Positions 1 through 37,742 of a DNA stretch of 64,000 bases are shown here, piece by piece. Every line of letters starts with the position of its first letter. Positions within the stretch are counted from its first letter, which is position 1. The notes under the pieces were generated by a model. That model saw nothing but the letters and a program-made list of their open reading frames with translations, did not search any database and was not told the origin of the DNA. Made by a program: the position numbers and the translations under genes. Source of the DNA: an uncultured Chloroflexia bacterium (lineage in GTDB: Bacteria > Chloroflexota > Limnocylindria > Limnocylindrales > CSP1-4); the NCBI GenBank assembly GCA_963767945.1, contig CAVYGH010000013.1, positions 70,078-134,077 of the forward strand, given 5' to 3'.

Positions 1-168
1 GTACTTGCAGGGGCCGAGGACCTTGTGCGTGAAGCCGTTGACCCCGCCCTCGCGGAACTCCTTGATCTCGTACTCGAACCCGAGGCCCTCGATCTTGGTC
101 CAGATCCCGAGCGGGATGAAGCCGTCGACCGTGCACTTGTACGCGATGCTGACTGCCGGATCGCCCAT
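1..168 (-). CDS. contractile-tail tube protein, second paralogue (T4 gp19-like); first 56 codons only, gene continues past the left edge
   Basis: ATG at 168 with GGGAG about 6 nt upstream. MGDPAVSIAYKCTVDGFIPLGIWTKIEGLGFEYEIKEFREGGVNGFTHKVLGPCKY carries the E-[YF]-REGG-x5-HK-x5-KY signature of gp19-type tube proteins. Absent from the ORF track because no stop lies inside the window. Confidence 0.75.
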   Translation of the reverse strand, partial: MGDPAVSIAYKCTVDGFIPLGIWTKIEGLGFEYEIKEFREGGVNGFTHKVLGPCKY

Positions 169-180
169 CGGTGCTCCCTG

Positions 181-2213
181 CTAGAACGCGTCGTAGCCGA
201 GGCCCTTGGCCTCGCGCTCGTGGATGACCTCCGCCTTGAGCTGCGTGCGGATGCGGCCGAACAGCGCCTTGGCGAGCTCGTCGAGCTCGCGATCGGAGCG
301 GGCCTCGCCCTGGCGCGGAGGGGTCGGCGCGGGCGCCTCCTCGCGCTGGACGATCGGCGTGGCCGTGAACGTCGCCACCTGGACCCCGCCGCCGCTCGGC
401 GACGTCTGCACGACCGGCGGAGCGCCGGGCGTCGACGGGTCGGCGACGATCCGCGCGACCACGGGCGTCGCGGCCGCGGCCGGGGCGGGAGCCGCGACCG
501 GCGCGGCGCACGACGGGGCGGGCGAGCGACAGGGGCGAGCCCGATCGCTGGACGGCCGGGCCGGTCGAGCCGGAGACGGGCGGCGTTCCGGTCCGGGTCG
601 CCGGGGCCGGGAGGACCGGAAGGGCCGGCGACCAGGCGGCCTCGCCGGGGCCGCCGCCGTCCGAGTCCCGCGGCGGGAACACGATCTCGCGGGCGCCGGG
701 GGTGTCGCCGGTCGGCCGAGCGCTCGTCGAGGGGGCCGTCGCGCCTGGGCTCGAGAGCTGAACGGGGGTCGGCGCTCCGACGCCCGTGGACGGCGGCAGC
801 GAGGTCACCGTGTCCGGGAGGGTGTCGGGCGACGCCCATCGCGCCGGAACCGGCGACGCGGGCGCCGGCGTGGTGGACCCGGGCGCGGCGTCCGCGGTCG
901 GGGAACCCGATCCGGGCGTGGACGACGGCGCGGCGACGGCGGGTCGAAGCGGCCGGGCGCCGACCGTCGGGAGGGTGGTGGTCGCGGTGCGGGCGACGGT
1001 CGGCGTGCCCGACATCGGCGGTCGGGCCCGCCGCGCGCCGGAGGACGATTCGACGCCGGCGCGCGTGCCCGACGGCGGCGACCCGGAACCGGCATCGTCG
1101 CGCCGGCGCGCCACCGGAAGCACCGGGAGCGGGCGCGCCTCGACGGCGACGGCCGGATGGCTCACCGGCGTCGCGACCGCCGCGGCATGGTCGGGTTCGG
1201 CGGGCGATCGGGATCCGACGGCCGGGCCGGCGGCGGCCGCGTCGTCCGGCCGGGCGGTCTGCCACGGTCGAAGGGGCAGTCGATCCGGGACGGCCGTCGA
1301 CGGCGCGGCGGGCAGCGGGGCACCGAGGCCGGCGCGTCGGGACCCGGCCGCCTGGCGCTGGACCGCGCCGGCCGGCGCCTCCGCGGGCAGCTCCGTGAAC
1401 CGGCGGGTCGGCGCGAGCGGCGGCCGGGCGGCGTCCGACCCGCTCCGTCGACGCGGTCGGGCGGGCCGCCCCGGGGACTCGCGAGCTCGCCTGGATCGGC
1501 AGCGCGACCTGGGTGGGCCGCTCTCCCCGCGCGGCGACCGACGACGACGAGGTCGAACGCGAGACCGTCGCGGGCAGCGGGGCCAGCGTGGGGGCTGCCC
1601 GGGTGAGCGGCTGCGAAGCGGGGGTGACGGTCGCGGACGGGGCGACCGCCGCGAGGGTTCGGACGGGGGCCGGCTCGGTCGCGGGCACGATCGCGGTGGC
1701 ACCCACATCGGACACCGCGGCAGCCGAGGGGTCGACGCTTCGCGAGACGACGGCGGCGGTCTCGTCGTCCTCGGTGGCGGTCGCCCGGGTGTCGGCCGCC
1801 GGGCCATCGGCATGCCGCTGGACGGGCCGGCCGGGGAGCGGTGCGTGGGATGTCAGGCTCGGGACCGCCCGCGGGTGCGCGACGACCAGGCCCGCGGGGG
1901 CCGCCGCGCTGGACTCGTGCCCGAGCGGGGTCAGGATCGGCGGGAGCGGGGCATGCCCCGGGACGTCGGCGAGGAACGGCGCCGCCGGCGCGACGACCGG
2001 CGGTGGCCCCGACGAGCGCTGGATCGGCGGCAGCGTCCGCCAGGCGCCCGTCGGCGGGATCGGGGCGGCGGCGCCGGGGACCGAGCCGCCGGTCGTGTCG
2101 CCGGCGGGGTCGACGCCGGACGGCGTGCCGGAACCGGCGTCACCCGAGCGGCTCGACGCCCCGTCGTCGGACGTGCTGCGGCCGAACGGCCACGGCAGGC
2201 GCACGGGACTCAC
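181..2213 (-). CDS. tape-measure-position protein of the CIS: about 675 aa, Pro/Ala/Thr/Ser-rich and low-complexity with a charged helical C-terminus; needs two +1 frame changes (near 1440 and near 510) as assembled
   Basis: GTG at 2213 overlaps the stop of the upstream 52-aa ORF (GTGA). The high-GC3 frame runs 2213 to ~1440, the next frame ~1440 to ~510, then the listed ORF 181..462 (ends DRELDELAKALFGRIRTQLKAEVIHEREAKGLGYDAF). The first two frames stay open to the window edge, so they are not in the ORF track. Confidence 0.55.
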
Positions 2214-2368
2214 TCCTCCTCGGACAGGCGCCGGTTGATGCGGCCGATCTCATCCACGAACCGCAGCCGGAGCGGGTGCTCCAGGTCGAGGATGCTGTCC
2301 ATCGGCCAGTGGAAGTGATAGGCGACGTACGCGACCTCTTCGAACAGCCGGTCGGTCGCGTACGTCAC
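2210..2368 (-). CDS. small conserved CIS-associated ORF, 52 aa
   Basis: GTG at 2368 overlaps the stop of 2365..2799 (GTGA), and its own stop overlaps the next start (GTGA). Translation is VTYATDRLFEEVAYVAYHFHWPMDSILDLEHPLRLRFVDEIGRINRRLSEEE with high GC3. It is below the ORF-track size cut-off. I recall similar 50-60 aa ORFs (DUF6760-type, number from memory) at this position in actinobacterial CIS loci. Confidence 0.55.
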   Translation of the reverse strand: MTYATDRLFEEVAYVAYHFHWPMDSILDLEHPLRLRFVDEIGRINRRLSEEE

Positions 2369-2799
2369 GATTCCCCCAGGCGCTGCTCACCCGCCACGTC
2401 GACCGTGAACGCGTGGTTGCACGCGGGGCAGGTGACCGAGGCCTGGGTGTGGCCTTCCTGGTTGACCCTGCGGTACAGGTCCTGCAGGAACGCGAGGTCC
2501 GACGCGAACAGCCCCTCGATCACCCCGGTGTGCACCTGGGGCAGCGTCCCGAGCCGGGTCACGACCCGGGACAGCAGGAGGATCGTCAGGTAGGCCTCGT
2601 TCTCGCGGACGCGCGGATCCCGCTGCGGGATGATCTCGTCGCGAGCGGTCGCGAGGCGCATGACGCCGTCGCGATGGACGGTGCCGGACCCGTCGACGAA
2701 GCCGCGGGGCAGCGCGAACGCGTACTCGGTCCGGAGGCCGTCGGACGCGTTCGTGCCGCTGCGGGCGTCGCCGAGCTCGGGCATGACGGCGAGGGTCAT
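2365..2799 (-). CDS. CIS tail-assembly-slot protein, 144 aa (function unproven)
   Basis: Intact ORF 8 nt downstream of the tube gene, ending with the CPACNHAFTV motif. Its position between tube and tape-measure genes matches assembly-chaperone genes of contractile tails. Confidence 0.5.
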   Translation of the reverse strand: MTLAVMPELGDARSGTNASDGLRTEYAFALPRGFVDGSGTVHRDGVMRLATARDEIIPQRDPRVRENEAYLTILLLSRVVTRLGTLPQVHTGVIEGLFASDLAFLQDLYRRVNQEGHTQASVTCPACNHAFTVDVAGEQRLGES

Positions 2800-2806
2800 C
2801 TCGGCC

Positions 2807-3241
2807 TCAGGCCTTGATCAGGGTCTCGCAGGACAGGGTCGCCTCCTCGATCTGGACGCCGCTCGTCGTGGCGCCGCCCTCGGAGAGGCTCACCTTGGAC
2901 AACATCGCGTTGGTGAAGTCGTAGCGAAGGATCTCCTCGCCCATCGTGTTCATGAGGATCACCGAGCCGTTGCGACGGTCCGGGTTCCCCTGCATGACGG
3001 CGGCGTGCCAGTCCCAGATCTCGGTCGCCCCGGTGAGGCCGCGCTTGAGCGTGACCGTCGGGGTCTTCGGCTTGCCCGGGAGCTTGCCGATGGTGACCTT
3101 GCCCTGGTCGTTGACGAACGGGTTGTCGACGATCTCGACCTCGCTCGAGACGCCCGAGACCGAGGTGAAGTTCGCGACGACGCCGACGCCGTCGATGTCC
3201 AGCAGGACGTTGCCTTGCAGCAGCGGATCAGTCGTGGGCAT
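2807..3241 (-). CDS. contractile-tail tube protein (gp19-like)
   Basis: 144-aa ORF directly after the sheath gene. The segments VLLDIDGVGVVANFTSVSGVSSEVEIVD and TLKRGLTGATEIWDWH are typical of tube proteins. Confidence 0.85.
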   Translation of the reverse strand: MPTTDPLLQGNVLLDIDGVGVVANFTSVSGVSSEVEIVDNPFVNDQGKVTIGKLPGKPKTPTVTLKRGLTGATEIWDWHAAVMQGNPDRRNGSVILMNTMGEEILRYDFTNAMLSKVSLSEGGATTSGVQIEEATLSCETLIKA

Positions 3242-3280
3242 CGGTGCCTCCGTGGCTTTCCAGGCGGGTGGTCATGACGG

Positions 3281-4783
3281 CTACTCGGCGTCCGGCGAGC
3301 CGGAGAACTGCGCGATCCGGAAGACGACGAACTCGGCCGGCTTCACGGGCGCGATGCCGATGTCGATGATCAGCTGGCCCGCGTCGCGGACCTCGGGCGG
3401 GTTGTTCTCCTCGTCGCACTTGACGAAGAACGCCTGGTCGGGCGTCGCGCCGAACAGCGCGCCGTCGCGCCAGACCCGCAGCAGGAACGCGTTGATCGTC
3501 CGCTTCACGCGGCCCCACAGGCGCTGGTCGTTGGGCTCGAAGACCACCCACTGGGTGCCCTCGAAGATCGACTCCTCGATGTAGTTGAACAGCCGCCGGA
3601 CGTTGAGGTACCGCCAGGACGGGTCGCTCGAGATCGTCCGCGCGCCCCACACCCGGATGCCGCGGCCGGGGAACGCCCGGATGCAGTTGATCCCGTTGGG
3701 GTTGAGCTGGTCGTGCTCGGCCTTGGTCAGGTTGAGGGCGAGGCTGATCGCGCCCCGGACGACCTCGTTGGCCGGCGCCTTGTGGACGCCGCGGGTGTCG
3801 TCGTTGCGCGCCCAGATCCCGGCCATGTGGCCGGACGGCGGGATGAACCGCGCCTGGCCGGACAGCGGGTCGAAGACCTTGATCCACGGCCAGTAGAGCG
3901 TCGCGTACTTGCTGTCGTAGCCGGCCTTGTCGACCCGCCACTCCTTGACCTGCTGCGCGTTCAGCCCTGGCGGCGCGTCGAGGATGGCGACGCGGTCGCC
4001 CATGAGCTCGCAGTGGGCGATCATCGCGAGGTGGACGGCCTGGAGGCCCTCCAGGTCGAGCATGCCCTGCTCGTACACGGCCATCAGGTCGGGGACCGAC
4101 AGCATGGTGACCTCGTCGACCGCCTCGAGGCCGGCGAAGCCGGTCCGGTCGGCCGAGTTGCCGACGTAGTCGTCGGGGGTCACGCGGGCGGGCGTGGGCG
4201 CGCTGCCACCGGACAGCGCCGTCGATCCGGCCGCGGGCGCGAGGGCGCCGACGTCCTCGATCGTGATCGTCTTGGACTGCGCCTTCACCACGGTCGCGAC
4301 GTTCTGCTTGCCGCGGGCGGTCGACACGTTGTCGAACGACTCGACCTCCTTGCCGCCGCGCTTGACGACGAGCTTGAAGGCGCCCTCCTCGCCCTGCGGC
4401 TGGACGTCGACGGTGATGTCGTTGCCCTCCGGCCCGGCTTCGAGGGCCGCGACGCGGAAGGCGGGCTTCGCCTTGTCGGACGAGCTCGGCAGCTCGGCGC
4501 TGGCGGTCGGGGCGACCCCGTCGGCGCCGACGCGCACGACGTAGGCGGCGCCGCCGCCGTTCAGGAAGTAGCCGTAGACGGCATGGGCGAGGTACGAGCC
4601 CTCGACGAAGTCTCCGAACGTGGACGTGAACTGGTTCCAGTTCGTGACCAGGGTCGGCGTGTTCGCGGGCCCGCGGCCCGCCAGTCCGACGAACGCGGCG
4701 ACGGCCGTGCCCACGCCCTCGATCGGACGGGACCCGGCCTCCACCTCCTCGACGTAGACGCCGGGCGACAGATAGTTCGGCAT
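3281..4783 (-). CDS. contractile-tail sheath protein
   Basis: Start taken at the ATG at 4783 (MPNYLSPGVYVEEVEAGSRPIEGVGTAVAAFVG, the classic sheath N-terminus). 500 aa and intact. Confidence 0.9.
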   Translation of the reverse strand: MPNYLSPGVYVEEVEAGSRPIEGVGTAVAAFVGLAGRGPANTPTLVTNWNQFTSTFGDFVEGSYLAHAVYGYFLNGGGAAYVVRVGADGVAPTASAELPSSSDKAKPAFRVAALEAGPEGNDITVDVQPQGEEGAFKLVVKRGGKEVESFDNVSTARGKQNVATVVKAQSKTITIEDVGALAPAAGSTALSGGSAPTPARVTPDDYVGNSADRTGFAGLEAVDEVTMLSVPDLMAVYEQGMLDLEGLQAVHLAMIAHCELMGDRVAILDAPPGLNAQQVKEWRVDKAGYDSKYATLYWPWIKVFDPLSGQARFIPPSGHMAGIWARNDDTRGVHKAPANEVVRGAISLALNLTKAEHDQLNPNGINCIRAFPGRGIRVWGARTISSDPSWRYLNVRRLFNYIEESIFEGTQWVVFEPNDQRLWGRVKRTINAFLLRVWRDGALFGATPDQAFFVKCDEENNPPEVRDAGQLIIDIGIAPVKPAEFVVFRIAQFSGSPDAE

Positions 4784-4874
4784 GCGTGGCCCTTTCCGAT
4801 GCGATGGATCCCAGCCCGCTGACCGTCCCACCCGCGGAGGGGCCGAACAAGGTGCGACCGGGCGCGCGGGAGGG

Positions 4875-4890
4875 CGGGCACGATTGCCCG
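4875..4890. promoter_or_regulatory. inverted repeat in the divergent sheath/terminator control region
   Basis: CGGGCA-CGAT-TGCCCG (6-4-6), 79 nt upstream of the GTG at 4969 and 92 nt upstream of the ATG at 4783. Confidence 0.25.
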
Positions 4891-4968
4891 AACGGGCGAC
4901 CAGCGCTGCCCCGACGGATGCCCGCCGACCGGCTGGCGGCGGCTCGCGCGTGGGCCGACGATCGGCGG

Positions 4969-5695
4969 GTGATCCACGACGTCGATCAGCTGCTCGAGAA
5001 GCTGGTCAAGCGCGACGCGCTCAACGGCTCGTCCGTCGACCTCGTCTTCGAGGCGCCCACGAAGGACTGGGTCGCCCGGCGGAGCGGGCCGGCCGTCGAC
5101 CTCTACCTGTACGACATCCGCGAGGACCTTCAACGGCGGGTGCCGGCCTGGGAGGACGTCCGAGACGCCAACGGGACCGTGACCCGCCGCCACCAGCCGC
5201 CGCGCCGGTTCCGGCTCGCGTACCTGGTGACCGCGTGGACCCAGCGGCCCGAGGACGAGCATCGGTTGCTGTCGTCGCTGCTCGCGTGCTTCCTGCGCAA
5301 CCCGATGATCAAGCCCGAGGACCTCGACAAGCCGCTGGACGAGGCGGACCTGCCGGTCTACCTCGAGGTCGGCCAGCCGGCCAGCCAGGAGCGCTCGCTG
5401 GCGGACGTCTGGTCCGCGCTGGGCGGCGAGCTCAAGCCATCGCTCGACCTGGTCGTCACGGCGCCGATCGTGGTCGACTCGAGCGCCTACTTCGGGCCGC
5501 CGGTGCTCGAGGGCCCGTCCATCGGGATCTCGTCGACCGGCGGAGCCGCCGAGTCGCGCCGCGGGGCCAGCCGCCGGCAGGGCCGACCTGGAGCTGGAGC
5601 CGTCCACCACCGAGGTGCTGCCGGCCAACGCGGGCGCCAAGGATGGCGGCGTGCGGATCCGGGTGAGCGGCGTCCGGCGACCGCCCCGCCGGTGA
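4969..5695 (+). CDS. DUF4255 (Pvc16/Afp16-like) tail terminator protein; one +1 frame change near 5580 as assembled
   Basis: GTG at 4969 gives VIHDVDQLLEKLVKRDALNGSSVDLVFEAPTKDW...RRFRLAYLVTAWTQRPEDEHRLLSSLL. After ~5580 the high-GC3 frame moves by +1 and ends at the TGA at 5693-5695, which overlaps the next GTG (GTGA). Confidence 0.75.
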
Positions 5696-7846
5696 CGACG
5701 GCGCCCGGCGCGACGCCGACACCGGGCGAGACGCCGGCGTTCGACGTGACGCCCACGCCCGGCCGCTCGGCCGCGCCGGACCCGTCGCTCGCCCACCTGC
5801 TCGGGCGCCTGTCGCTGGTCGAGCGCCGCGTGCGGGCCGCCGTCGACCGCCGGCGGGCCTCCGACGCCGATCCCGGCGACCGCTTCCGCGGCCTGTACAT
5901 CTCCGACGAGCAGGTGGACGGGCTGCTGGATCGGCCCGCCGGCCCGCTGGTGCCGCCGGAGGCGGACGCGTCGACGGCCGAGCTCCGAGCGGCGCTCGAG
6001 GCCCGGGCGGAGGCGGCGGAGGCCGACGGCGCGATCCTCCGGCTGCGCGATCTCGCCCGGGTGTTCGCGCTCCAGCCGGTGGACACCGAGCTGCTGCTGG
6101 TGGCGCTCGCCCCCGACCTCGACCCGCGCTTCGAGCGCCTCTACGGCTATCTCCACGACGACGTCTCGCGGCGTCGCGCGAGCGTCGGCCTGGCGATCGA
6201 GCTGTGCGGCGCGACGACGGCCGCCGACGGCGCGCCGATCCGCGAGCGCCTCGGCCCGCTCGCGCCGCTCGTCGCCGGACGTCTGCTGATCGTGGAGGAC
6301 GCCGACCGCCCGTCGCTCACGCGGCCGCTGCGCGTGCCCGACCGCGTCACCGCCCACCTGCTCGGCGACGACCGCCCCGACCCGATCGTCGAGGCGTTGC
6401 TGGCGTCGTCGATCGCGGTCGAGGTCGACGAGGCGGAGGTCGTGGCCCGCGGTCTGGCCGCCGGCCGGACGCTCGTGTACGTCCGCGAGCGCGCCGGCGC
6501 ATCCGGGCGGTCGCTCGGCTGGACGGCGCTCGCGCGCGGCGGGCGCCCGGCGATCGCGCTGGACCTCGGCCGGATGTCGGCGGGCGACGACCCGGTCCAG
6601 CTGGCGGCCGCCGCGTCCCGCGAGGCGCGGCTGCGCGGCGCCGGCCTGGTGGTGGGCCCCGTCGAGCCGCTCGTGGAGCGCGGGCCGGCCGCCGTCCGGG
6701 CCTTCGCCGAGCAGGCCGGTCCGGTGATCCTCGTCGGCGGCCGGGACTGGGACCCGGCGTGGTCGCGGGAGCCGCCGCTCATCGTGGACGCTCCCGTCCC
6801 CGGCGTGGAGCGCCGCCACGAGCTGTGGCTCGGATCGCTCGACGGCGACGCCCCCGAGGGGTTCGACCCCGCCGCGGCGACGATCGCGTTCCGCCTGACC
6901 CCCGAGCAGATCGACCGCGCCGCCCGGGCCGCCCGCCATGCCGCAGGCGCCGAGGCGCGGCCGATGACGATCGGCGACGTGTCGGCCGGGGCGCGGGCGC
7001 AGAACGCGGCGGGCCTGGAACGGCTCGCCCGCCGCATCGAGCCGACCGTCGCGCTGGGACGACCTCATCCTGCCGACGGTCGTCGACGCCCAGCTGCGGG
7101 AGCTGACCGCCCGCGCCCGGCACCGCGACCGGGTCATCGGGGAGTGGCACATGGGCACCAAGGGCGCCCGCGGCGTCGGCGTGACGGCCCTGTTCGCGGG
7201 CGACTCCGGGACCGGCAAGACGATGTCGGCCGAGGTCGTCGGGCACGACCTCGGCCTCGACGTCTACGTGATCGACCTGTCCACCGTGGTCGACAAGTAC
7301 ATCGGCGAGACGGAGAAGAACCTCGACCGCATCTTCACCGAGGCCGATCGCGTCAACGGGATCCTGCTGTTCGACGAGGCGGACGCGCTGTTCGGCAAGC
7401 GGTCCGAGGTCAAGGACGCCCGCGACCGGTACGCGAACGTCGAGGTCGCCTACCTGCTCCAGCGGATGGAGCGCTTCGACGGGCTGGCGGTGCTGACGAC
7501 CAACCTGCGCTCCAACGTCGACGAGGCCTTCGTCCGCCGGCTCGACGCCATCGTCGACTTCCCGATGCCCGAGGAGGAGCACCGGCGCCGCCTGTGGGCG
7601 GCCAACCTCGCCCCGGACCTGCCGATCGCCGGCGACATCGACCTCGACTTCCTGGCGGGGCGGTTCAAGATCTCGGGCGGCAACATCCGCAACGTCTGCG
7701 TGACCGCCGCCTACCTCGCGGCCGCGGAGGATCGACCGGTCACGATGGCCGACCTCGTGCGGGCGACGGAGCGCGAGTACCGCAAGCTCGGGCGGCTGAC
7801 CGTTGAGGCCGAGTTCGGCGAGTACTACGACCTGGTGAACGGGTAG
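5692..7846 (+). CDS. CIS AAA+ ATPase (Afp15/Pvc15-like); one +1 frame change at ~7054 as assembled
   Basis: The N-terminal domain has the FRGLYISDEQVDGLL motif. The junction reads ...RIEPTVA / WDDLILPTVVDAQLRELT.... Walker A is GDSGTGKT and Walker B is ILLFDEADALF, both in listed ORF 7151..7846. Confidence 0.85.
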
Positions 7847-7972
7847 CGGACGCCGGTCGGCCGACATCCCCCCGTGTGCCCCTTGGGGCAGACTTCCGGG
7901 CGGTCGTGCTCGAGCCCATTGCGGAGGCCGTTTCGGTGGTCGATCCTGAGCCTGGACACAGGAGGACCGCCA

Positions 7973-8679
7973 ATGCGCGATTTCGAGTTGGAGGCCGCCC
8001 GCGGCGCGCTGCGGGCCCCGGAGCGCGACGTTCCCGCGCCGGCCGCGGGGGAATCGGCCCCGGGCGCGCCGGCCCGGTCGCCGGCGCTCGACGCGGCGAC
8101 CCTGATGCACCTCCAGCGCACGGCCGGCAACGCGGGCGTGGTGCAGATGCTGGCGGGCGAGGAGGAGCAGGCGTCGCCGGTCCACGAGGTCGTGGGCTCG
8201 GGCGGTGGTCGTCGCTCGACGCCGGCACGCGCTCGACGATGGAGTCGGCGTTCGGCCAGTCGTTCGACGAGGTCCGCGTCCACACCGACGACCAGGCGTC
8301 GAAGTCGGCCGAATCGGTCGGCGCGAACGCGTACACGGTCGGGTCGGACATCGTGTTCAAGAGCGGCCAGTTCGACCCCGGCAGCGCGTCGGGCCAGCGG
8401 ACCATCGCGCACGAGCTGGCCCACGTCGTCCAGCAGTCGCAGGGACCCGTCGACGGCTCGGACGCCCCCGGTGGCATCCGCGTCAGCGACCCGTCGGACC
8501 GCTTCGAGCGTGCCGCGGAGTCGACGGCCGACCAGGTGATGTCCTCGGTCTCCGCGTCGCCGCCATCGTCGGCGGCGCCGGCCGGCGTGCAGCGCGAGGA
8601 GGACGAGGCCTCGGGCGCCGTCGCGGCGGTGCAGCGCGAGGCGACGCCCGAGGAGGAGGAAGAGGAGCTCCCCTCCTGA
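7973..8679 (+). CDS. DUF4157 zinc-metallopeptidase-like protein (CIS cargo/marker family); one -1 frame change at ~8211 as assembled
   Basis: AGGAGGA lies 6 nt before the ATG at 7973. The N-terminus has LQRTAGNAGVVQML. The junction reads GSGGG(R)/SLDAGTRSTMESAFGQSFDEVRVHTD, followed by an HELAH motif and an acidic tail EEEEEELPS. Confidence 0.8.
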
Positions 8680-8686
8680 GCGAGGC

Positions 8687-9334
8687 CTAGATCAGGCCCT
8701 CGCGGATGGCGTACGCCACGGCGTGCGCCCGGTTGCGCAGCTCGAGCCGCGACGTCACGTCGTGGATGATGTTCTTGACGGTCCGCTCCGAGTAGTACAG
8801 CCGCCGGCCGACCTCGGCGGTGTCGCAGCCGTCGGCGAGCAGCCGGAGGACGGCGGCCTCGCGCTCGGTCAGGCCCGAGAACGTCAGCCCGCGCGGCGAC
8901 AGCACCTGGCGCTGGAGCTGGCCGACCTGGCGCAGGAGGCGCCCGAGGAGGTCCGGCGGCAGCGTGCCCTCGCCGGCCGCGGCGGATCGGATCGCGGCCG
9001 CCAGGTTGCCGGCCGTGGCCTCGCTGCGGCGGATGACGCCCGTGACGCCCGCCTCGGCCGCCGCGAGGAGCGACCGGTCGTCCACGCGTGAGACCAGGAG
9101 GACGATCCGTCGCACGCCGCGCGCGCGAAGCGCGCGCATCTCGGCGATGACCTCGGGCGCGACCTCCTCCGTCACCACCAGCGCGACCGAGTCCTCGGGC
9201 GGCTCGTCGTCGGCGACGACGACGAACCCCTGCGCCCGGCGGAGCTGGCTGGCGATGCCCGCCCTGGACAACGGGTCTGAGGCCCGCACCGCGACCGGGA
9301 TCGGGGCCTTGGTGGGCATCGGTTCGGCGACCAT
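8687..9334 (-). CDS. LuxR/NarL-family transcriptional regulator with an atypical receiver-like N-domain
   Basis: C-terminal HTH LTEREAAVLRLLADGCDTAEVGRRLYYSERTVKNIIHDV. Start preferred at the ATG at 9334 (GGGGAG 7 nt upstream); the ORF track extends to 9349. Confidence 0.8.
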   Translation of the reverse strand: MVAEPMPTKAPIPVAVRASDPLSRAGIASQLRRAQGFVVVADDEPPEDSVALVVTEEVAPEVIAEMRALRARGVRRIVLLVSRVDDRSLLAAAEAGVTGVIRRSEATAGNLAAAIRSAAAGEGTLPPDLLGRLLRQVGQLQRQVLSPRGLTFSGLTEREAAVLRLLADGCDTAEVGRRLYYSERTVKNIIHDVTSRLELRNRAHAVAYAIREGLI

Positions 9335-9373
9335 TCGGGATCTCCCCACTCGCGCTCCCGGCCGCCATCCACC

Positions 9374-9387
9374 CCGCGTCGACGCGG
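9374..9387. promoter_or_regulatory. perfect 14-bp palindrome upstream of the LuxR-type regulator gene
   Basis: CCGCGTCGACGCGG, 40 nt upstream of the ATG at 9334. In the same 223-bp divergent region TAACGGGC is repeated directly at 9411 and 9447. Confidence 0.3.
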
Positions 9388-9557
9388 TCCGGGAACCAGT
9401 CGGGCGACCCTAACGGGCCCGGCTGTCCGGCCAGTCAACGTGGACTTAACGGGCATCGCCGGCTGCCCTCGGCGTCGCCCGGATAGGCCGATCGAACTAC
9501 CCCGATGACCGCTCGGCTGGCTGTGCGGGCGTGGAACCCGCGGCTACACTCACGCCC

Positions 9558-10820
9558 GTGGGAGCATCCGTCACGCTGGTCACGCCTGCCCTGTCGGTCG
9601 AACCGGGGCAGGTGGCCACCGGCGAGGTCCGGGTCCGGAACACGGGCAGCGTCGTCGACGAGTTCACCCTGGACGTCCTCGGTGACGCCGCGGGCTGGGC
9701 CGCCGCCGAGCCGGCCGTCCTCTCGCTCTTCCCCGGCGCCGAGGGCACCGCCAACGTCGTGTTCCGGCCGCCGCGCGTCGCGACCACGCCCGCCGGGACG
9801 GTGCCGTACGGACTCCGGGCCCGCTCGCGCGAGGACCCCGCCGGGTCGGCCGTCGAGGAGGGCTCGGTCGAGGTCGGCGCGTTCCTCGACCCGTTCGCCG
9901 AGCTCGCGCCGCGCACGTCCCGCGGCTCCGGCTCCGGCTCCCACGACCTCGCCATCGACAACCGCGGCAACCTGCGCCTGAACGCCGAGGTCGAGGGCAC
10001 GGACGCGGACCGCCAGCTCAGGTTCGACATCAGGCCGCCGGGCGTGGTCGTGGAGCCGGGCATGGCGGGCTTCGCGAAGATCCGCGTCAGCCCGGTCAAG
10101 CGGTTCTGGCGCGGCCAGCCCAAGACGCGGCCGTTCCAGCTCTTCGTCCGTCCCGAGGGCGGCACGCCCATCACGCTCGACGGCACGCTGCTCCAGGAGT
10201 CGGTCCTCCCGCCCTGGTTCCTCAAGGCGCTGATCGCCCTCGTCGTGCTGCTGATCGCGCTGGTCCTGATCTGGCTGCTGCTGCTCAAGCCGACCATCCA
10301 GACCGCGGCGAGCGAGGCGGTCGAGTCGCCCCTCGCGAGCCTCAAGGCGGACGTCAACGACGCGCTGGGCGCCGCGGGCCTGCCGACGATCGGCCCCGAG
10401 GCGAGCGGCGGCAGCGGCGAGTCCGAGGCACCGTCGGGCGGCGCCCCGTCTGGCGAGGCGCCGAGCGGCGGCGGACCGTCGTCTGCCCCGACGAGCACGC
10501 CGGGCGTCGTGATCCCGGGCCTCGGGAACCCCGTCGACGGGCGCCTCGACAGCACGCACCCGCAGGTCGACGAGGACGGCACCCTGTTCGTGACCGACTT
10601 CGTGTTCTCCAACCCCAACGGGGCCGAGGGCGCGATCGTGGTGTCGCGCAACGACACGCCGCTGCTGCAGCTGCGGCTCGAGAACTTCCGCGACTACGAC
10701 CTGCACTTCGTCACCCCGATCGTCCTCGGCCCGGACGACGCGCTGAACCTCACGCTGAGCTGCACGAGCCCCGGGTCATGCGACCCCGCGGTCTTCTACT
10801 CCGGATACCTGCGGCCCTGA
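9558..10820 (+). CDS. bitopic membrane protein: two N-terminal Ig-like (CARDB/NEW3-like) repeats, one TM helix, a Gly/Ser/Pro linker and a C-terminal domain of about 110 aa
   Basis: Intact ORF. TM segment is ALIALVVLLIALVLIWLLLL. Repeats are LSVEPGQVATGEVRVRNTGSVVDEFTL and HDLAIDNRGNLRLNAEVEG. No N-terminal signal peptide. The start could be 9531 or the GTG at 9558; a TACACT -10-like hexamer lies at 9545-9550. Confidence 0.5.
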   Translation: MGASVTLVTPALSVEPGQVATGEVRVRNTGSVVDEFTLDVLGDAAGWAAAEPAVLSLFPGAEGTANVVFRPPRVATTPAGTVPYGLRARSREDPAGSAVEEGSVEVGAFLDPFAELAPRTSRGSGSGSHDLAIDNRGNLRLNAEVEGTDADRQLRFDIRPPGVVVEPGMAGFAKIRVSPVKRFWRGQPKTRPFQLFVRPEGGTPITLDGTLLQESVLPPWFLKALIALVVLLIALVLIWLLLLKPTIQTAASEAVESPLASLKADVNDALGAAGLPTIGPEASGGSGESEAPSGGAPSGEAPSGGGPSSAPTSTPGVVIPGLGNPVDGRLDSTHPQVDEDGTLFVTDFVFSNPNGAEGAIVVSRNDTPLLQLRLENFRDYDLHFVTPIVLGPDDALNLTLSCTSPGSCDPAVFYSGYLRP

Positions 10821-12925
10821 GCCCCGCGGTTCGCCGGGTCGCCGCAGCCGCGCTGGGCCTGGCGCTGGTCGCCCCTGCGGCGCCCGTGCCGCCGGTCGCC
10901 GCCTCGCAGGGCGCGGCGCCGCTTGCCGCCGGCCCTCGGATCGCCTCGCCGGCGCCGGTCACGCCGCCCGTGGGGCCGTCGGACGCCCCGCTGCCGGCGC
11001 CACCCGGGCGGACGACGCTCGTGTCCCAACGCGCCGGCGGCGGCTTCCCGAACAACGCGTCCGCGGAGCCGTCGATCTCGGCCGACGGGCGGTACGTGGC
11101 GTTCGCCTCCTCGGCCACGAACATCGCGGGCGGCGGCGCGGCGCCCAACCCGGCGGTCTACGTGCTCGACCGCCAGCGGGGCCGGACGATCCGCCTCCCG
11201 CTGCCGCCGGGGTTCGCGGGCGGCGGGCAGGCCCGCGAGCCGTCGATCTCCGCCGACGGCAACGTGGTCGCCTTCACGTTCCAACCGCCGTCGGGGCTCG
11301 CGGTGCCCGGCAGCCTCGTGATCGCGTGGGATCGGGGCACCGGCCGCTCGCAGGTCGCGTCGCGGACGTCGGCGAACGAACCCGCGGCCGGCAGCCGCGA
11401 GCCGTCCGTGTCCGCGACCGGCCGGTTCATCGCGTACACGTCCAACAACGTCAAGATCGTCGCGGGCATCGGAGACAACCTCAACGTCTTCCGGTTCGAC
11501 CGGCGCACTCGCGACACCGACCTGGTCTCGGTGGGCTTCGGGGGCCAGCCGATCGGCGCGACCAGCGGCGCGCCGTCGATCTCGGGCGATGGCGGCGTCG
11601 TCGCCTACGTGTCCGACGGCGGGGACGTGATCACCCACACGAACACGGGCTCAGGGTTGCAGGTCTACGTCAGGCGGATGGCTGCCGGGCGACCTCGCCA
11701 GGTGAGCGTCGCGATCGACGGCGCCCCGAACGGCGCCTCCGGTGCCCCGGCGATCTCGGCCGACGGGCGGGTCGTCGCGTTCGAGTCGGCCGCCCCGAAC
11801 CTCGTCGCGGACGACGGCAACGGCGCGCCCGACGTCTTTCGCCGGGACCTCGCGGCCGGCGCGACGACCCTCGTCTCGGTCACGCCCGGCGGCGACGCCG
11901 CCGGCGGGCAGAGCCGGCTGCCGGCCATCTCGGCGGACGGTCGCATGATCGCGTTCCAGTCCAGCGCCCCCGACCTCCTCGGCCCGGTCGCGTCCGTGCC
12001 CGACGCCCACCTCGCGGCCGTCGCGATCGCGCAGACCGAGGTCTACGAGCGCGACGTCGTGCTGGGCGACACCGTCCTGATCTCGGTCGCCCGCAACGGT
12101 GGCCCGGGTGGCCGCGCGAGCCTGATGGCGACCGTCGGCGGCAACGGCCGCTACGTGGCCTTCGCCTCGACCGCGGACACGCTCGTGCGCAACGACCGCC
12201 TCAAGCACGCCGACGTGTTCCTGCGCGACATGCCGCCGGCGCCGAGGCTCAACCCGGACACGATCGCGTTCGGCACGCTCGCGGTCGACGCCGCCGCGGC
12301 GCCGGCGGCGGCCACGCTCGTCAACGCCGGGTGGGGACCCCTGTCCGTCCGACGCGCCGCGATCACCGGCGCCGCCCGCAACGACTACGACGTCGTCGCC
12401 GACGGCTGCGTCGGGCGGGTGCTCCACCGCCAGGACGCCTGCACGGTGACCGTGCGGTTCGCCCCGTCCCGGGCCGGTGCACGCCCGGCCACCCTCGCCG
12501 TGCCCGACTCGTACGCGGGGTCGCCGCGCACCGCCGGCCTGCGCGGATCCGGGCTGCGGGCACCGCGCGCATTCGACCCTCGGCTGGTGCTCGATCCGGA
12601 GGTCGGCCCGCCGGGCACGGTGGTCGTCGCGACGGGTTCGGGGTTCCCGCCCAACGCGGACGTGCGCCTCGCCTGGTCGATCGGCATCACGCCCAAGCTC
12701 CCGCTCGTCCGGGCGGACGCCGCCGGGCGGTTCCGCGTCCAGGTGCTGGTCTTCCACAACGACCGGATCGGCCCGCGTGACCTGCGCGCCGCGCCCGTCG
12801 CCGCCGGCGCCTTCCCGACCGTGCCCGCGGACATGACCGTCACCAGGCCCTCCGTCGGGCCGCCGGGGTTCCTCATCATCCGACGCGTGATCGACCTTCC
12901 ACTCGTGCTCCTGATACGAGGCTGA
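10778..12925 (+). CDS. exported PD40/TolB-like beta-propeller repeat protein with C-terminal Ig-like domains
   Basis: Signal-peptide-like N-terminus. Contains at least 6 repeats of the type EPSISADGRYVAFAS, PSISADGNVVAF, PAISADGRVVAFES and PAISADGRMIAFQS. Intact, and overlaps the upstream gene by 43 nt. Confidence 0.7.
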   Translation: MRPRGLLLRIPAALSPAVRRVAAAALGLALVAPAAPVPPVAASQGAAPLAAGPRIASPAPVTPPVGPSDAPLPAPPGRTTLVSQRAGGGFPNNASAEPSISADGRYVAFASSATNIAGGGAAPNPAVYVLDRQRGRTIRLPLPPGFAGGGQAREPSISADGNVVAFTFQPPSGLAVPGSLVIAWDRGTGRSQVASRTSANEPAAGSREPSVSATGRFIAYTSNNVKIVAGIGDNLNVFRFDRRTRDTDLVSVGFGGQPIGATSGAPSISGDGGVVAYVSDGGDVITHTNTGSGLQVYVRRMAAGRPRQVSVAIDGAPNGASGAPAISADGRVVAFESAAPNLVADDGNGAPDVFRRDLAAGATTLVSVTPGGDAAGGQSRLPAISADGRMIAFQSSAPDLLGPVASVPDAHLAAVAIAQTEVYERDVVLGDTVLISVARNGGPGGRASLMATVGGNGRYVAFASTADTLVRNDRLKHADVFLRDMPPAPRLNPDTIAFGTLAVDAAAAPAAATLVNAGWGPLSVRRAAITGAARNDYDVVADGCVGRVLHRQDACTVTVRFAPSRAGARPATLAVPDSYAGSPRTAGLRGSGLRAPRAFDPRLVLDPEVGPPGTVVVATGSGFPPNADVRLAWSIGITPKLPLVRADAAGRFRVQVLVFHNDRIGPRDLRAAPVAAGAFPTVPADMTVTRPSVGPPGFLIIRRVIDLPLVLLIRG

Positions 12926-12932
12926 ACCGACG

Positions 12933-14066
12933 ATGACCGACCAACCCGGAACGATCTGCAAGCGCTGCGGCTTCAGCAACATCCCGGGCGACCAGTTCTG
13001 CGGCTCGTGCGGGGCGTTCCTGCCGTGGGAAGGGCAGCCGACCGATGCCCAGGCCGGCGAGCCCGGGTCGCCCGCGGTCCCGGCGCCGGTCGATCCCGCG
13101 GCGCCGGACGACGCCTCGGCGTCGTGGGGCGCGCCGTACGGCGATCCGCTGCCCACGCCGCCGCCGGTCCCGGCGTGGCCGGACGACGATGAGGACGACG
13201 ACGGCGACCTCGTCCGCTGCCCCGCGTGCGGGATCGCCAACCCGTCGAACCGGACCTTCTGCCAGTCGTGCGGCACGACCCTGGCGGCCGCGGCGCGGGT
13301 CGAGGACGCGTCGGACGACGAGATCGCGGCCGCGGTGGCGATGACGCCGACGCCGGTCGCCGAGCCGACGAGCCCGACCACGACGGCCCGTGGTACGCCC
13401 GACGGGAAGCGCGGCGTCCCGTCGTGGGTGATCGGCGTCGGCGTCGTCGGCCTGCTGGTCGGCGTCGCGATCGTCCTGGCCGGCCTCGCCCTGCGCGGCC
13501 CCGCCCCGGACTCGGGTGCCACGGGGTCCGGCGACGTCCCGTCGGGAGCGGCGGCCAGCGGCGCCCCGCAGGCCAGCGGCCCGTCGGGCTCGGCGTCGGC
13601 GCCCGGCACGCCCGTCCCGCTCGTGTTGACCAAGGCGAAGGCCTCGTCGGTCGCGGGCGACCGGCCGAAGTTCCAGCCGGGCATGGCGATCGACGGCGAT
13701 CCCGACACCGCGTGGCAGGAGGGCGCCCAGCAGGAGAAGGACCAGTGGATCGAGGTCGCGTTCGACGCGTCGCGCGCCGACACGCTGGTCGTCCGGAACG
13801 GCTACCAGGCGTCCCAGGCGCAGTTCCGCGGGACCCGGCGGCTCAAGGACGTCCTGGTCACCGTCAACGGCGGCAAGGCGATCCCGGTGAAGCTCAAGGA
13901 CTCGATGAAGCCCCAGGAGATCGACCTCGGCGGCGTCTCCGGGGCGACCAAGGTCAGGATCACGATCGTCTCGACCTGGCCGGGCGAGGCGACATCCGTC
14001 GACGGCACGCCGTTCGACGACGCGGCGGTGAGCGAGCTCACCGTGCTCGGCGTGCCCGGGGGCTGA
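12933..14066 (+). CDS. double zinc-ribbon, TM, discoidin (F5/8 type C-like) domain protein
   Basis: Zinc ribbons CKRCGF..CGSCG and CPACGI..CQSCG. TM segment is WVIGVGVVGLLVGVAIVLAGL. The C-terminal domain has AIDGDPDTAWQEG...VRITIVSTWPG. Confidence 0.65.
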   Translation: MTDQPGTICKRCGFSNIPGDQFCGSCGAFLPWEGQPTDAQAGEPGSPAVPAPVDPAAPDDASASWGAPYGDPLPTPPPVPAWPDDDEDDDGDLVRCPACGIANPSNRTFCQSCGTTLAAAARVEDASDDEIAAAVAMTPTPVAEPTSPTTTARGTPDGKRGVPSWVIGVGVVGLLVGVAIVLAGLALRGPAPDSGATGSGDVPSGAAASGAPQASGPSGSASAPGTPVPLVLTKAKASSVAGDRPKFQPGMAIDGDPDTAWQEGAQQEKDQWIEVAFDASRADTLVVRNGYQASQAQFRGTRRLKDVLVTVNGGKAIPVKLKDSMKPQEIDLGGVSGATKVRITIVSTWPGEATSVDGTPFDDAAVSELTVLGVPGG

Positions 14067-14087
14067 CAGCGTGCGCGGCGCTGCCGT

Positions 14088-15673
14088 ATGGTCCGCTCGG
14101 ACGCGACGGGCGTCCGGCGGTCCACGTGGGGGGACCAGGTGAGCGGATTCGGAGCGGGCGTCGGCAAGGCCGTCGGAGGCCTTGGCGGGCCGCAGGTCGC
14201 CGCGATCGCGATCGCGGGCGGGCTCGTCGTCGGGGCGATCGGCGGCGGGCTCATCGCCGGCGGCGGGTCGGGCCAGGGGGCGACCTCGGCGGCGACGCTG
14301 GCGATCTACCCCTGTCCCGAGGCGGGACCCGCGCTGGCCACGGTCCCGTCCGGGCAGCAGTTCCTGGTGACGGGCAAGAACGCCGACGCGACCTGGGTCC
14401 GGATCTACTACCCGCTGCCGGGTCGAACCGAGGCGTGGGTGACGTCGGGCCCCCTCCAGTTCGACGGGTCGCTGGGCGCCCTGCCGGTCGTGCCCTGCTC
14501 GCCGGTCGAGGCCGGCCCGGGCGCCTCGGTCGAGCCGGGCGCGTCGCTGACGGCGATCCAGGACAACAGCCCGTCGCCGCCGCCGTCAGCACCGCCCACG
14601 ACCGGGCCGACCACCTCCCCGGACGGCGGGCCCACGCTCGCGCGGCTCGAGTTCGGGACGACGATCGCGGGCGGCCCGCAGCGCTACTGCCAGCGCGTGC
14701 CGCGCTCGATCACGATCAGCGTCCGCGCGACGGATCGAACGGGCGTCGCCTCGGTGGAGCTGTCGTACCGCAAGCCCGGGGCGGCGAACTTCGCCACCAA
14801 GGCCATGTCGAGGGTCGGCGGGAGCGACACCTGGCGGGCGACGCTCGCCACGGATCCGGACGGCATCACGGGCCCGGCAGCCTCCGCTTCTTCGTCAGCG
14901 GCGACGGACGAGGACCCGAAGCCCAGGACGTCGCGCCTCCGCCGCGCGCTCGATCGGCGTCGTCGACTGCGCCAACGAGGGCCCGGTCCTCGCGTCGCTG
15001 CGGGCGGCCCCGGCCAGCGTGGTCACGAACCCGGGACGCCTGCCAGGAGAGCCCGAAGACCACGGCGATCACCGTGAACGCCACGGACGTCGACGACGTG
15101 GCCGGCGTCACCCTCCACTACCGGCTGCCGGGCGACGGATCGTTCCGCGACGCGAAGATGACGAAGAACGGGGACCGCTGGCGGGCGACGGTGACGCCGG
15201 TCGACCAGCGGCCCAACGCCGACGGCAAGGCCTCGTACTACGTCGTCGGCGAGGACGACCTCGGGAAGTCGAGGCGGTCGCCGACCCGGACGTTCACGGT
15301 CAACCGCTGCAACTTCCCGGCCACGCTTCGGTGTCGTCAACTGGGACACGAACCAGGTCTGCGCCTCGGCGACGACGGTCTTCGCGAGCATCGGGCGGGC
15401 CAACGACGCGGACGGCCTCGACGGCCCAGAGCGCCAAGGTCGTCTACACGCTTCACGCCGAAGGGCGGCGGCCGGAGGACGGCGAGCCGGTCGCTGGCGC
15501 AGACCCAGGTGATCGGCGACAACCACTACTACTCGGGGCAGGTCGGGCTCAAGGGCCTCGAGCCCGGGAGCACCATCTCGGCGTACGTCCAGCTGACCGA
15601 CAAGTACGGCAAGACCACGAAGGACCGATCGCCGAACGACACGTTCTCGGTCCAGGTCGCGGCGGGGTGCTGA
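14088..15673 (+). pseudogene. membrane-anchored SH3b-like plus three tandem Ig-like-module protein; at least 7 frame changes between 14875 and 15490 as assembled
   Basis: The first 263 codons are intact, with a Gly-rich TM and SH3b-like ATLAIYPCPEAGPALATVPSGQQFLVTGKNADATWVRIYY. The remainder is readable only by switching frames at ~14875(-1), 14900, 14940, 15034, 15326, 15426 and 15490. The modules repeat the pattern ITISVRATD..VELSYRKPG..W, AITVNATD..VTLHYRLPG..W and VVYTLHA... Confidence 0.5.
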
Positions 15674-15677
15674 GGCG

Positions 15678-23766: not shown

Positions 23767-23828
23767 GCGCTAACGATGCCCGATCGCGGGCGGACGAGCG
23801 TGCCGCCCGGGCGTGCCGCCCGCGGCGC

Positions 23829-26767: not shown

Positions 26768-26893
26768 CGGGGACAGGATGGGGGAGGCCCGGTTCGGCTG
26801 CCAGTCGACGAGGGTTACGGTTCGACTGCAAGGGCACCCGCGCGGTACCGGGCCGCAACCGATTTCGGTAGCGGTGCCGCCTACGCTGGTACG

Positions 26894-36121: not shown

Positions 36122-36203
36122 CGGAGACTCCAATCGGCCGCCGGACGGACCGGCGGCCGATCTGCGGGCACGGCCCGGCGAGCGCACCGGGCCGTCGGGG
36201 TCA

Positions 36204-37531: not shown

Positions 37532-37647
37532 GGGTCGATCGATCCTCCCACGCATCGATGCCCGGTCGCTCTCCGGGTTGCGCGGAGGTTCCGCCACGAG
37601 GTCCGGCACGTCAGTCGCCCTGCCCGGTTCGAGGCGGGGCCGATTGG

Positions 37648-37673
37648 GTTTCGACCGGTTGCGATCCGGTGAC
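37648..37673 (-). promoter_or_regulatory. GlnR-box-like repeat upstream of amtB
   Basis: The minus strand reads GTCAC-cggatc-GCAAC-cggtc-GAAAC, 117-142 nt upstream of the ATG at 37531. It resembles actinobacterial gTnAc-n6-GaAAc sites, but the spacing is imperfect. Confidence 0.25.
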
Positions 37674-37742
37674 GGCGATCAGCCGATCGGCGACGTTGAC
37701 CGCGCTAAGCCTCCGATGCATGGGTCGGGCCATCCTGTGGTC

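Follow-up and report, generated by a model that had tools for sequence, protein, structure and literature searches.

Introduction

Contractile injection systems (CIS) of class IId are, to our knowledge, the only CIS shown to act inside the cell that produces them, as a regulated cell-death device; the organisms in which this has been studied to date are Streptomyces and, more recently, thermophilic Chloroflexota and Deinococcota. For Streptomyces, cytoplasmic assembly, recruitment to the membrane, contraction and cell death have been demonstrated (PMC10066040, PMC12237407, PMC10020575), and the Streptomyces papers describe the absence of a typical tape measure, yet extended particles of a uniform length of ~230 nm. 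Relatives in the Chloroflexota and Deinococcota, Roseiflexus among them, have likewise been shown to keep their CIS in the cytoplasm, and the report on this lineage placed it as a clade outside the Streptomyces CIS (Gaisin et al. 2026, PMC12998442). In the current study a 64,000-nt stretch of DNA (contig CAVYGH010000013.1, positions 70,078 to 134,077; hereafter the window) was analysed, and positions 1 to ~14066 probably represent the larger part of a chromosomal class IId CIS, of the type found in S. coelicolor and S. venezuelae (CISSc), from a soil member of the Limnocylindria, the frame breaks of which would be artefactual and the action of which would be cytoplasmic and directed towards cell death.

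Results

Gene content and order of the locus

The window has a G+C content of 69-79%, and raw lists of open reading frames (ORFs) were swamped by spurious frames; real genes were told apart by third-position G+C and a seven-state frame model, followed by Pfam searches of 57 coding segments spanning the 64 kb, with the unscanned gaps being read as ORFs. Comparisons were made with L008, the cleanest syntenic relative, in which the window edge corresponds to position ~13206, with two actinomycete CIS clusters (L033 and L034) and with a plasmid locus of Deinococcus taeanensis (L037). The features up to and including the regulator are as follows.

1-168, minus strand: tube2, second tube paralogue (Cis1b/Afp5-like tube initiator), N-terminal 56 codons, cut by the window edge (Pfam Phage_T4_gp19, E=1e-3)
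181-2213, minus strand: Pro/Ala-rich gene in the tape-measure position, ~665 aa if intact (tblastn against the intact L008 orthologue)
2210-2368, minus strand: DUF6760 ORF, 52 codons (Pfam DUF6760, E=2e-12)
2322-2393, minus strand: recoding-like cassette, with a Shine-Dalgarno-like GGUGA (~2391-2387), GGGGGAA (2377-2371), a 0-frame stop UGA (2367-2365) and a 12-15 bp hairpin (2368-2322)
2365-2799, minus strand: 144-aa ORF (ORF144), tail-assembly-chaperone homologue, G-like (PHROG 508, E=9.5e-6)
2807-3241, minus strand: inner tube, Cis1a/Afp1-like (Pfam gp19, 1.2e-21)
3281-4783, minus strand: contractile sheath, Cis2 (Pfam Phage_sheath_1, Phage_sheath_1C, domII)
4784-4968, no strand assigned: divergent intergenic control region (block conservation in an alignment of 18 loci)
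4969-5695, plus strand: DUF4255/Pvc16_N tail terminator cap, Cis16 (Pfam Pvc16_N, 1e-38; the frame opens at 4786)
~5746-7846, start codon inferred, plus strand: AAA+ ATPase with N-terminal winged helix, Cis15/Afp15-like (Pfam WHD 1e-31; AAA 4e-23 at 6968-7846)
7973-8679 (ORF 7876-8679), plus strand: stand-alone small DUF4157/eCIS_core protein with an HExxH motif and an acidic tail (Pfam eCIS_core, 1e-32)
8687-9349, minus strand: NarL/LuxR-type regulator, convergent with the DUF4157 gene (Pfam GerE; NCBIfam NarL-type response regulators, below cutoff)

An earlier note, made from the sequence alone, had described two divergent arms, and the gene order bears this out. Its minus-strand sheath, tube, 144-aa ORF, 52-aa ORF, tape-measure-position gene and tube paralogue were all recovered at the coordinates it gave, by Pfam and by L008 orthologues, and a Pfam profile search confirmed its plus-strand series of DUF4255, AAA+ ATPase and DUF4157 genes followed by the convergent LuxR-type regulator. 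The CIS genes are closely packed, with overlaps of 4 nt or gaps of 7-39 nt. The same note ended the locus at position 9334, whereas conserved CIS-associated genes run on to at least 10820 and probably to 14066.

The best match of the sheath among solved structures is the Streptomyces CIS sheath 8BKY/8BL4 (PMC10066040), at E=7e-199, followed by the next PDB family at 2e-118 and by Afp, PVC and AlgoCIS at ~1e-45 to 1e-50. In a comparison with plasmid-borne loci its identity was 65% to Kitasatospora, 54-58% to Streptomyces/Streptantibioticus (58% to S. clavuligerus), 46.5% to Deinococcus and 41% to a cyanobacterium; similarity to the Afp sheath (~40%) is confined to the C-terminal domain, and the best phage sheath reaches 34%. 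The intact DUF4255 orthologue of a second relative, L007, matches the S. coelicolor CISSc cap 9GTS at 2.8e-58, while the L008 orthologue of tube2 matches gp19 at 1e-24 and, at 7.5e-22, tube chain 9GTP_a of the CISSc baseplate (both structures being from PMC12237407). The Pfam score of the window's own tube2 is weak because the fragment is truncated: 53 of its 56 residues match the full-length, 161-aa L008 protein. For the inner tube, matches to NCBIfam CIS1/CIS5 and TIGR02241 all fell below cutoffs, and matches to the Pvc1, Afp1 and Streptomyces tube chains in the PDB lay between 1e-6 and 1e-8. Judged by PDB match and identity ranking, the locus groups with Streptomyces clade IId. No type VI secretion system family was found in any Pfam scan of the window or of L008, the sheath being one phage-type protein and not a TssB/TssC pair.

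On the plus arm, the ATPase domains lie in two frames, WHD in frame 1, which opens at 4786 and also contains Pvc16_N, and AAA in frame 2. The 731-aa orthologue, intact in L007, shares 44.5% identity with the ATPase of the CIS on S. clavuligerus plasmid pSCL4. The DUF4157 gene has an ATG at 7973 with GGAGGA ahead of it; its product is 52% identical to an unannotated ORF of the pSCL4 CIS cluster and returned nothing in NCBIfam. The regulator adjoins the CIS in 13 relatives and is 46% identical to a response regulator situated beside DUF4255 in pSCL4.

Among the conserved blocks between the two arms are a perfect palindrome at 4885-4897, TGCCCGAACGGGC, and, after it, two TGCCC repeats (4907-4924) spaced 12 nt apart. 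The palindrome is conserved across loci and shows no statistical enrichment in the window; it is perhaps an operator, possibly for the adjacent NarL/LuxR-type regulator. A related palindrome, GCCCCTTGGGGC, occurs at 7878-7890, upstream of the DUF4157 gene. Scans of positions 1-9600 for sigma-70 consensus promoters and for terminators returned nothing.

Relatives, host and left flank

A tube-protein search of one-genome-per-species contigs yielded 27 syntenic loci, all of them in metagenome-assembled genomes (MAGs) of Chloroflexota/Limnocylindria with the exception of a 2.7-kb fragment (L022) binned as Kineosporiaceae. Several lie on contigs of 0.7-2.7 Mb, and DNA identity over the locus reaches 84-86% in the best of them. 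The phosphoenolpyruvate (PEP) carboxylase encoded in the window has its best named matches in Chloroflexota and Candidatus Limnocylindrales, and an 88%-identical copy lies on the same 2,689,925-bp contig that bears L008. The host is, on the evidence of these relatives and of this enzyme, a member of the Chloroflexota, class Limnocylindria. A Streptomyces or other actinomycete host, at which a G+C content of 74% might hint, is ruled out by the same two observations, so the high G+C is no actinomycete sign.

In every sufficiently long syntenic relative the baseplate and spike genes follow directly past the position of the window edge. In L008 the Pro/Ala-rich gene is followed by tube2 (gp19), a CIS_tube and LysM initiator, VgrG (Phage_GPD and Phage_base_V), PAAR, gp25, Baseplate_J and Tail_P2_I, and the coding-segment layouts of L007, L006, L030 and L025 look like it. 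In most relatives a gene opening with a zinc ribbon begins ~270 nt past Tail_P2_I; in L008 itself an IS3-family transposase (19436-20429) stands in place of this zinc-ribbon gene in the CisA position. No tail fibre, head or lysis genes were found in the relatives' flanks. Extrapolated to the window, this arrangement would mean that it holds about two-thirds of the CIS gene cluster, with ~6 kb of structural genes lying beyond the left edge.

The CIS clusters of a Kitasatospora plasmid and of S. clavuligerus pSCL4 have the same gene order as the locus described here, and this collinearity takes in the regulator, the DUF4157 gene and the effector-like gene described below. Both actinomycete clusters also have an ORF of ~130-160 aa, DUF6760 and a very long ORF ahead of tube2. 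Conservation towards these two loci is mosaic: the sheath, ORF144, DUF6760, gp25, Baseplate_J and the gpI-like protein are 47-73% identical (L008 Baseplate_J at 54-57%), and the tube, tube2, LysM initiator and VgrG are 27-37% identical. This pattern, high in the outer parts and the chaperone homologue and low in the inner parts, hints at module exchange or at a divergence of the lumen driven by cargo.

Genes beyond the regulator

Three further genes on the plus strand lie to the right, in what is probably a continuation of the locus.

9558-10820, plus strand: effector-like bitopic membrane protein (N-domain homology, transmembrane prediction)
10778-12925, plus strand: PD40 beta-propeller envelope protein (Pfam PD40)
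12933-14066, plus strand: CisA-like candidate membrane adaptor (Pfam; transmembrane prediction)

The first of these proteins has a conserved beta-sandwich N-domain of ~250 aa and one transmembrane (TM) helix, joined by a linker to a variable C-domain. It is 41% identical (E=1e-49) over the N-domain and TM helix to BB341_RS30070 of the pSCL4 CIS cluster, a protein of the same build, and 48% identical to an ORF of the Kitasatospora CIS cluster, and its gene is syntenic in 8 relatives. A shared N-domain, a single TM helix and a variable C-domain are likewise the published description of the effectors Sco4256-58 (PMC10066040), homologues of which were noted in Chloroflexi IId loci by Vladimirov et al. 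(PMC10020575).

The protein encoded at 12933-14066 comprises a pair of zinc ribbons and an acidic linker, then a single TM helix and, outside the cytoplasm, an F5/8-type-C domain (NADase_transloc), in the same order as in the post-baseplate proteins of the Kitasatospora and pSCL4 clusters; the Kitasatospora protein gave three collinear weak matches (E=6e-7, 3e-5 and 5e-4). The predicted topology agrees with that of CisA, whose N-terminus lies in the cytoplasm and whose single TM helix leads to an outer domain of ~150 aa (PMC12237407). The PD40 gene between the two is syntenic in the 4 relatives whose loci extend so far, but none of the actinomycete CIS loci examined encodes a homologue of its product, and it is uncertain whether the gene is linked to the CIS. 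The CisA-like gene is followed on the same strand by two more genes for membrane-anchored proteins without a family match (14067-17621), the first of which has several frame switches; this stretch lies past the ends of the relatives' loci.

Frame breaks

The count of four frame-disrupted CIS genes in the earlier note was correct, and comparison with intact orthologues resolves these disruptions into five single-nucleotide indels. Against the 665-aa L008 protein the tape-measure-position gene gives three collinear high-scoring segment pairs in frames -2, -3 and -1, with breaks at ~1425-1440 and ~455-510. The DUF4255 gene breaks at ~5575-5590, its conserved C-terminal 35 aa continuing in the next frame. 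The ATPase gene has a 1-nt insertion at ~7069 relative to six of seven aligned relatives (the seventh, L025, has no alignment through this stretch), and the DUF4157 gene a 1-nt deletion at ~8211 relative to all seven.

Genes unrelated to the CIS are split in the same manner. In an alcohol dehydrogenase gene (22653-23769) the Pfam domains ADH_N and ADH_zinc_N lie in separate frames; in a histidine kinase gene (26804-28280) the HisKA match breaks off at profile position 31 and the HATPase_c domain is in a different frame; in gltB (31411-36157) one frame holds GATase_2 and the central domain and another holds Glu_synthase from position 77 together with GXGXG; and amt (36207-37531) is broken twice, into three frames. 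The breaks in these four genes fall at ~23295, 27751, 33343, 37066 and 37187, and further candidates lie at ~15327, 15436, 18900, 30880 and 45102. A detector applied uniformly found 13 events in the window (2.0 per 10 kb), three of them in the CIS arm and 10 elsewhere. Among loci from the long-read MFD-series MAGs it found 31 events in 327 kb, with a range of 0-5.9 per 10 kb, and among the non-MFD loci, mostly short-read assemblies, 1 event in 111 kb (0.09 per 10 kb). A concentration of frameshifts in the CIS was considered and is unsupported by this detector (3 versus 10, P=0.24). Where the assembly is clean, every orthologous CIS gene has an unbroken frame.

Since housekeeping genes are split likewise and the rate of breakage tracks assembly type, the five breaks are most probably consensus errors of long-read metagenome assembly and not pseudogenisation. 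The earlier note had left activity an open question on account of these breaks; as gltB and amt are split too and the rate follows the type of assembly, they are probably an artefact, and we conclude that they carry no information on activity. More generally, frame breaks in long-read MAGs are not to be taken as pseudogenisation.

The chaperone homologue, DUF6760 and a frameshift-like junction

Phage tail chaperone pairs of the G/GT kind (lambda G/GT, P2 E/E+E') use a conserved -1 frameshift, an account of which is said to have been given by Xu, Hendrix and Duda in 2004. The locus resembles such pairs in several respects. The chaperone homologue lies directly between the tube gene and the tape-measure-position gene, and DUF6760 is a short ORF in the -1 frame relative to ORF144 that overlaps its last codons, as read from the sequence. 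PHROG 508, 'tail assembly chaperone', is the sole family matched by ORF144 and by 30 of the 30 homologues tested; ORF144 has no Pfam match and nothing in NCBIfam, a profile of it finds nothing in the PDB, and an AlphaFold2 model based on 30 close homologues has a mean pLDDT (predicted local distance difference test score) of 46. It is 73% identical to its Kitasatospora CIS-cluster orthologue and 68% to that of pSCL4. A public metagenome protein collection holds at least 7997 homologues, counted over all phyla carrying the family; the best 120 are all at least 72% identical, and a single 94%-identical cluster comprises 519 member sequences. DUF6760, for which NCBIfam likewise gave nothing, is encoded as an identical protein on five metagenome contigs and occurs on a contig of more than 1 Mb.

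The minus strand reads CAG CGC CUG GGG GAA UCG UGA at the junction, placing a G-run slip site two codons ahead of the ORF144 stop. GGGGGAA is kept in 30 of 31 Limnocylindria loci and in all four Streptomycetaceae loci (the equivalent cassettes lie at ~18600-18680 in L034 and ~16390-16470 in L033). Among the Limnocylindria the junction is conserved at the nucleotide level though the loci differ by 15-25% elsewhere, and it is nearly identical in the four Streptomycetaceae clusters. Third-codon-position entropy averages ~0.75 bit upstream; of the 13 consecutive codons from -27 to +11, 12 have none, after which it rises for six codons and drops again, so that the stems are at zero and the loop is not. 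The invariant blocks fold as a 15-bp hairpin of ~-34 kcal/mol, the well-conserved core of which starts 5 nt past GGGGGAA, in a further likeness to the phage arrangement. The frameshift signal of dnaX has an upstream Shine-Dalgarno-like element, and the cassette with its GGUGA resembles that signal.

Covariation supports this fold. Across 26 distinct genome and plasmid junctions 94% of the cells pair, with compensatory changes in two pairs. A metagenome scan gave 137 distinct junctions with a search pattern that fixed all but seven of the hairpin pairs, and all seven unconstrained pairs show compensatory changes (35 cells), a result equalled or beaten in 0-1 of 1000 shuffles; controls in which the register of the hairpin was slid pair at just 21-49%.

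Two features set the junction apart from the phage pairs. GGGGGAA, read as G GGG GAA, departs from the canonical X XXY YYZ heptamer, as the P-site re-pairs perfectly and the A site only via G.U, which lowers the case for a classical G/GT signal while leaving that for a signal that works like one. The nominal DUF6760 start is GUG at 112 of the 137 junctions, AUG at 14 and CUG at 11 (CUG also in two of the four actinomycete clusters); since 92% of junctions thus carry GTG or ATG at the start of the second ORF, independent or coupled initiation is possible, and translational coupling of an independently initiated DUF6760, enforced by the hairpin, is a serious alternative to frameshifting. With that alternative in mind, we propose tentatively, at rather less than even likelihood, that ORF144 and DUF6760 form a G/GT-style pair expressed through a programmed -1 frameshift, in which DUF6760 may be the 'T-like' extension of a fusion protein, and that the disordered Pro/Ala-rich protein is the missing tape measure or ruler of class IId. 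In the searchable literature there is no mention of DUF6760 or of a chaperone frameshift in a CIS.

The case for the Pro/Ala-rich protein as a likely length ruler follows from the adjoining gene pair, if this has been read correctly as a tail chaperone. The protein itself matches no Pfam, NCBIfam or PHROG family. A Pro/Ala-rich ORF of 1383 aa holds the same position in pSCL4, to which the likeness is positional and compositional, together with short motifs recognised by eye; its conserved N- and C-terminal parts gave no BLAST match in the actinomycete loci. Short 'VQR(E)' motifs, repeated and noticed by eye, occur both in this protein (181-2213) and in the acidic tail of the DUF4157 protein (8500-8679). 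In the more distant IId locus on the Deinococcus taeanensis plasmid, a gene for a 59-aa protein (L037, 5046-5225) comes after the chaperone homologue and before tube2; this small protein is Pro-rich at its start and ends in a helix similar to the C-terminus of its long Pro/Ala-rich counterpart in Limnocylindria, and could be a minimal 'tape measure'.

Other features of the window

Between 34000 and 44000 a strong positive AT skew (0.12-0.19) extends over minus-strand genes (gltB, amt, a Na+/H+ exchanger and others), which looks like ordinary strand and coding bias. Two regions called non-coding by the frame model contain genes that are not phage-related: an extracytoplasmic function (ECF) sigma factor with a downstream anti-sigma-like membrane protein (48316-50120), and an XRE-type helix-turn-helix protein (37383-38396).

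Discussion

The identities, order and homology of the genes, the phylum of the host and the existence of intact orthologous clusters elsewhere are observed directly, and the mode of action can be modelled on the relatives. Following the Streptomyces and Chloroflexota/Deinococcota literature, particles would assemble free in the cytoplasm; under stress, a membrane adaptor would bring the fibre-less baseplate to the cell's own membrane, where contraction of the sheath would free membrane-targeting effectors and the producer cell would die.

Several points weigh against this interpretation. Cytoplasmic assembly, recruitment to the cell's own membrane, effector release and cell death are deduced here from homology. 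The baseplate of the window's own left flank is predicted from relatives that are only 84-86% identical in DNA. The equivalence of the 9558-10820 protein to Sco4256 would follow from the published description, the sequence itself having been compared with the pSCL4 protein, and the 12933-14066 protein is a CisA-like candidate on the basis of its domain order, topology and weak collinear matches. The inner tube is just 30-37% identical to actinomycete tubes, because of which the handling of cargo may differ. Finally, if the two tape-measure-gene shifts are added to the events of the uniform detector, indels are nominally denser in the CIS arm than elsewhere (P=0.03), these two shifts having come from a more sensitive method used in that gene alone.

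Among the other explanations, the one that survives best, while remaining unlikely, is a classical extracellular CIS of the Afp/PVC kind, in which particles released by lysis inject toxins into other organisms. Its core gene set is common to extracellular CIS (eCIS), the DUF4157/eCIS_core protein is present, and Vladimirov et al. read the Streptomyces system as an eCIS, with Sco4242 as its fibre (PMC10020575). In no relative, however, does a tail-fibre gene follow the baseplate, its place being taken by a CisA-type zinc-ribbon/TM protein; there is no lysis cassette in the 64 kb, and the CIS of Streptomyces, Roseiflexus and Deinococcota, which are its nearest characterised relatives, reside in the cytoplasm (PMC10066040, PMC12998442).

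That the locus is a decaying remnant, in which the five frameshifts are genuine mutations that have left the system non-functional in this strain, appears very improbable. The presence of five 1-nt indels in four genes, those of the ATPase and DUF4255 genes lying outside long homopolymers, and the nominal excess in density obtained when all five are counted would fit such decay; the like breakage of gltB and amt and the dependence of the rate on assembly type do not, and the CIS genes have no in-frame stops, deletions or insertion sequences, with orthologous clusters being intact in clean assemblies.

Genes encoding DUF4255, the AAA+ ATPase and DUF4157 are markers of CIS. A prophage tail module or R-type tailocin is hardly credible, for while the order of sheath, tube, chaperone and tape measure is that of a myophage tail and ORF144 matches a phage chaperone family, these three markers are present, Pfam over the 57 coding segments, like the reading of the gaps between them, gave no capsid, portal, terminase, integrase or lysis family, head, packaging and fibre genes are likewise missing from the 64 kb and from the relatives' flanks, neither an Rfam family, a tRNA nor an attachment-site-like feature was found in the window, and the best phage sheath is 34% identical as against 58-65% for actinomycete CIS. 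The earlier note had read the locus as a Streptomyces-type CIS rather than a prophage, on the absence of such phage genes from the 64 kb, and both the reading and the absence stand; the PDB matches of the sheath and cap and the gene order of the actinomycete clusters speak for the same view.

The presence of a near-complete Streptomyces-type cluster, with regulator, effector-like and CisA-like genes, fixed in the Limnocylindria, an uncultured class of Chloroflexota, argues for inter-phylum transfer and for a role that is not bound to the mycelial life cycle. If the ruler hypothesis is correct, Limnocylindria particles with a 665-aa ruler would be markedly shorter than those with a ruler of ~1400 aa. 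The frameshift-like cassette offers Streptomyces laboratories a cheap and concrete test of how CISSc length and assembly are controlled.

Comparison with known systems

The system belongs to a known class, to which the present analysis adds a host lineage, an extended gene set and the recoding hypothesis. Like CISSc of S. coelicolor and S. venezuelae (Casu 2023 and 2025; Vladimirov 2023), it has a single-protein sheath, a cap consisting of Cis16 only and two tube paralogues; the order of LysM initiator, VgrG, gp25, Baseplate_J and Tail_P2_I, here taken from relatives, is shared, as are the lack of a fibre and of a canonical Afp14 tape measure and the placement of the AAA+ ATPase and DUF4255 on a separate arm. 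The NarL/LuxR-type regulator and the single-TM effector-like protein with the shared N-domain add to the likeness, which the candidate CisA-like bitopic protein would complete. It differs from CISSc in its host, which is of the Chloroflexota and not the Actinomycetota, in its divergent inner tube, and in having a second CisA-like paralogue and an effector-like gene past the regulator instead of between ATPase and sheath. PAAR, present in the Limnocylindria relative, occurs in S. venezuelae and is absent from S. coelicolor, while the Pro/Ala-rich protein is approximately half as long as that of pSCL4 (665 versus 1383 aa).

With the Roseiflexus/Thermogemmatispora/Deinococcus lineage (PMC12998442) the locus shares its place within clade IId, the lack of a fibre and, as is presumed here, a cytoplasmic location, and it comes from the same phylum as the Chloroflexota members of that lineage. 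Unlike that lineage, it has a sheath far nearer to those of Streptomycetaceae (54-65%) than to that of Deinococcus (46.5%), and its host is a mesophilic soil member of the Limnocylindria, whereas the hosts of the Roseiflexus type are thermophilic Chloroflexia. The Deinococcus locus also lacks DUF6760 and the GGGGGAA/hairpin junction. Afp of Serratia and PVC of Photorhabdus have the core families of sheath, tube, cap, ATPase and baseplate in common with the locus, the sheath similarity being limited to the C-terminal domain at ~40%, but differ from it in possessing three sheath paralogues, the Afp13 fibre, a canonical Afp14 tape measure and downstream toxin genes.

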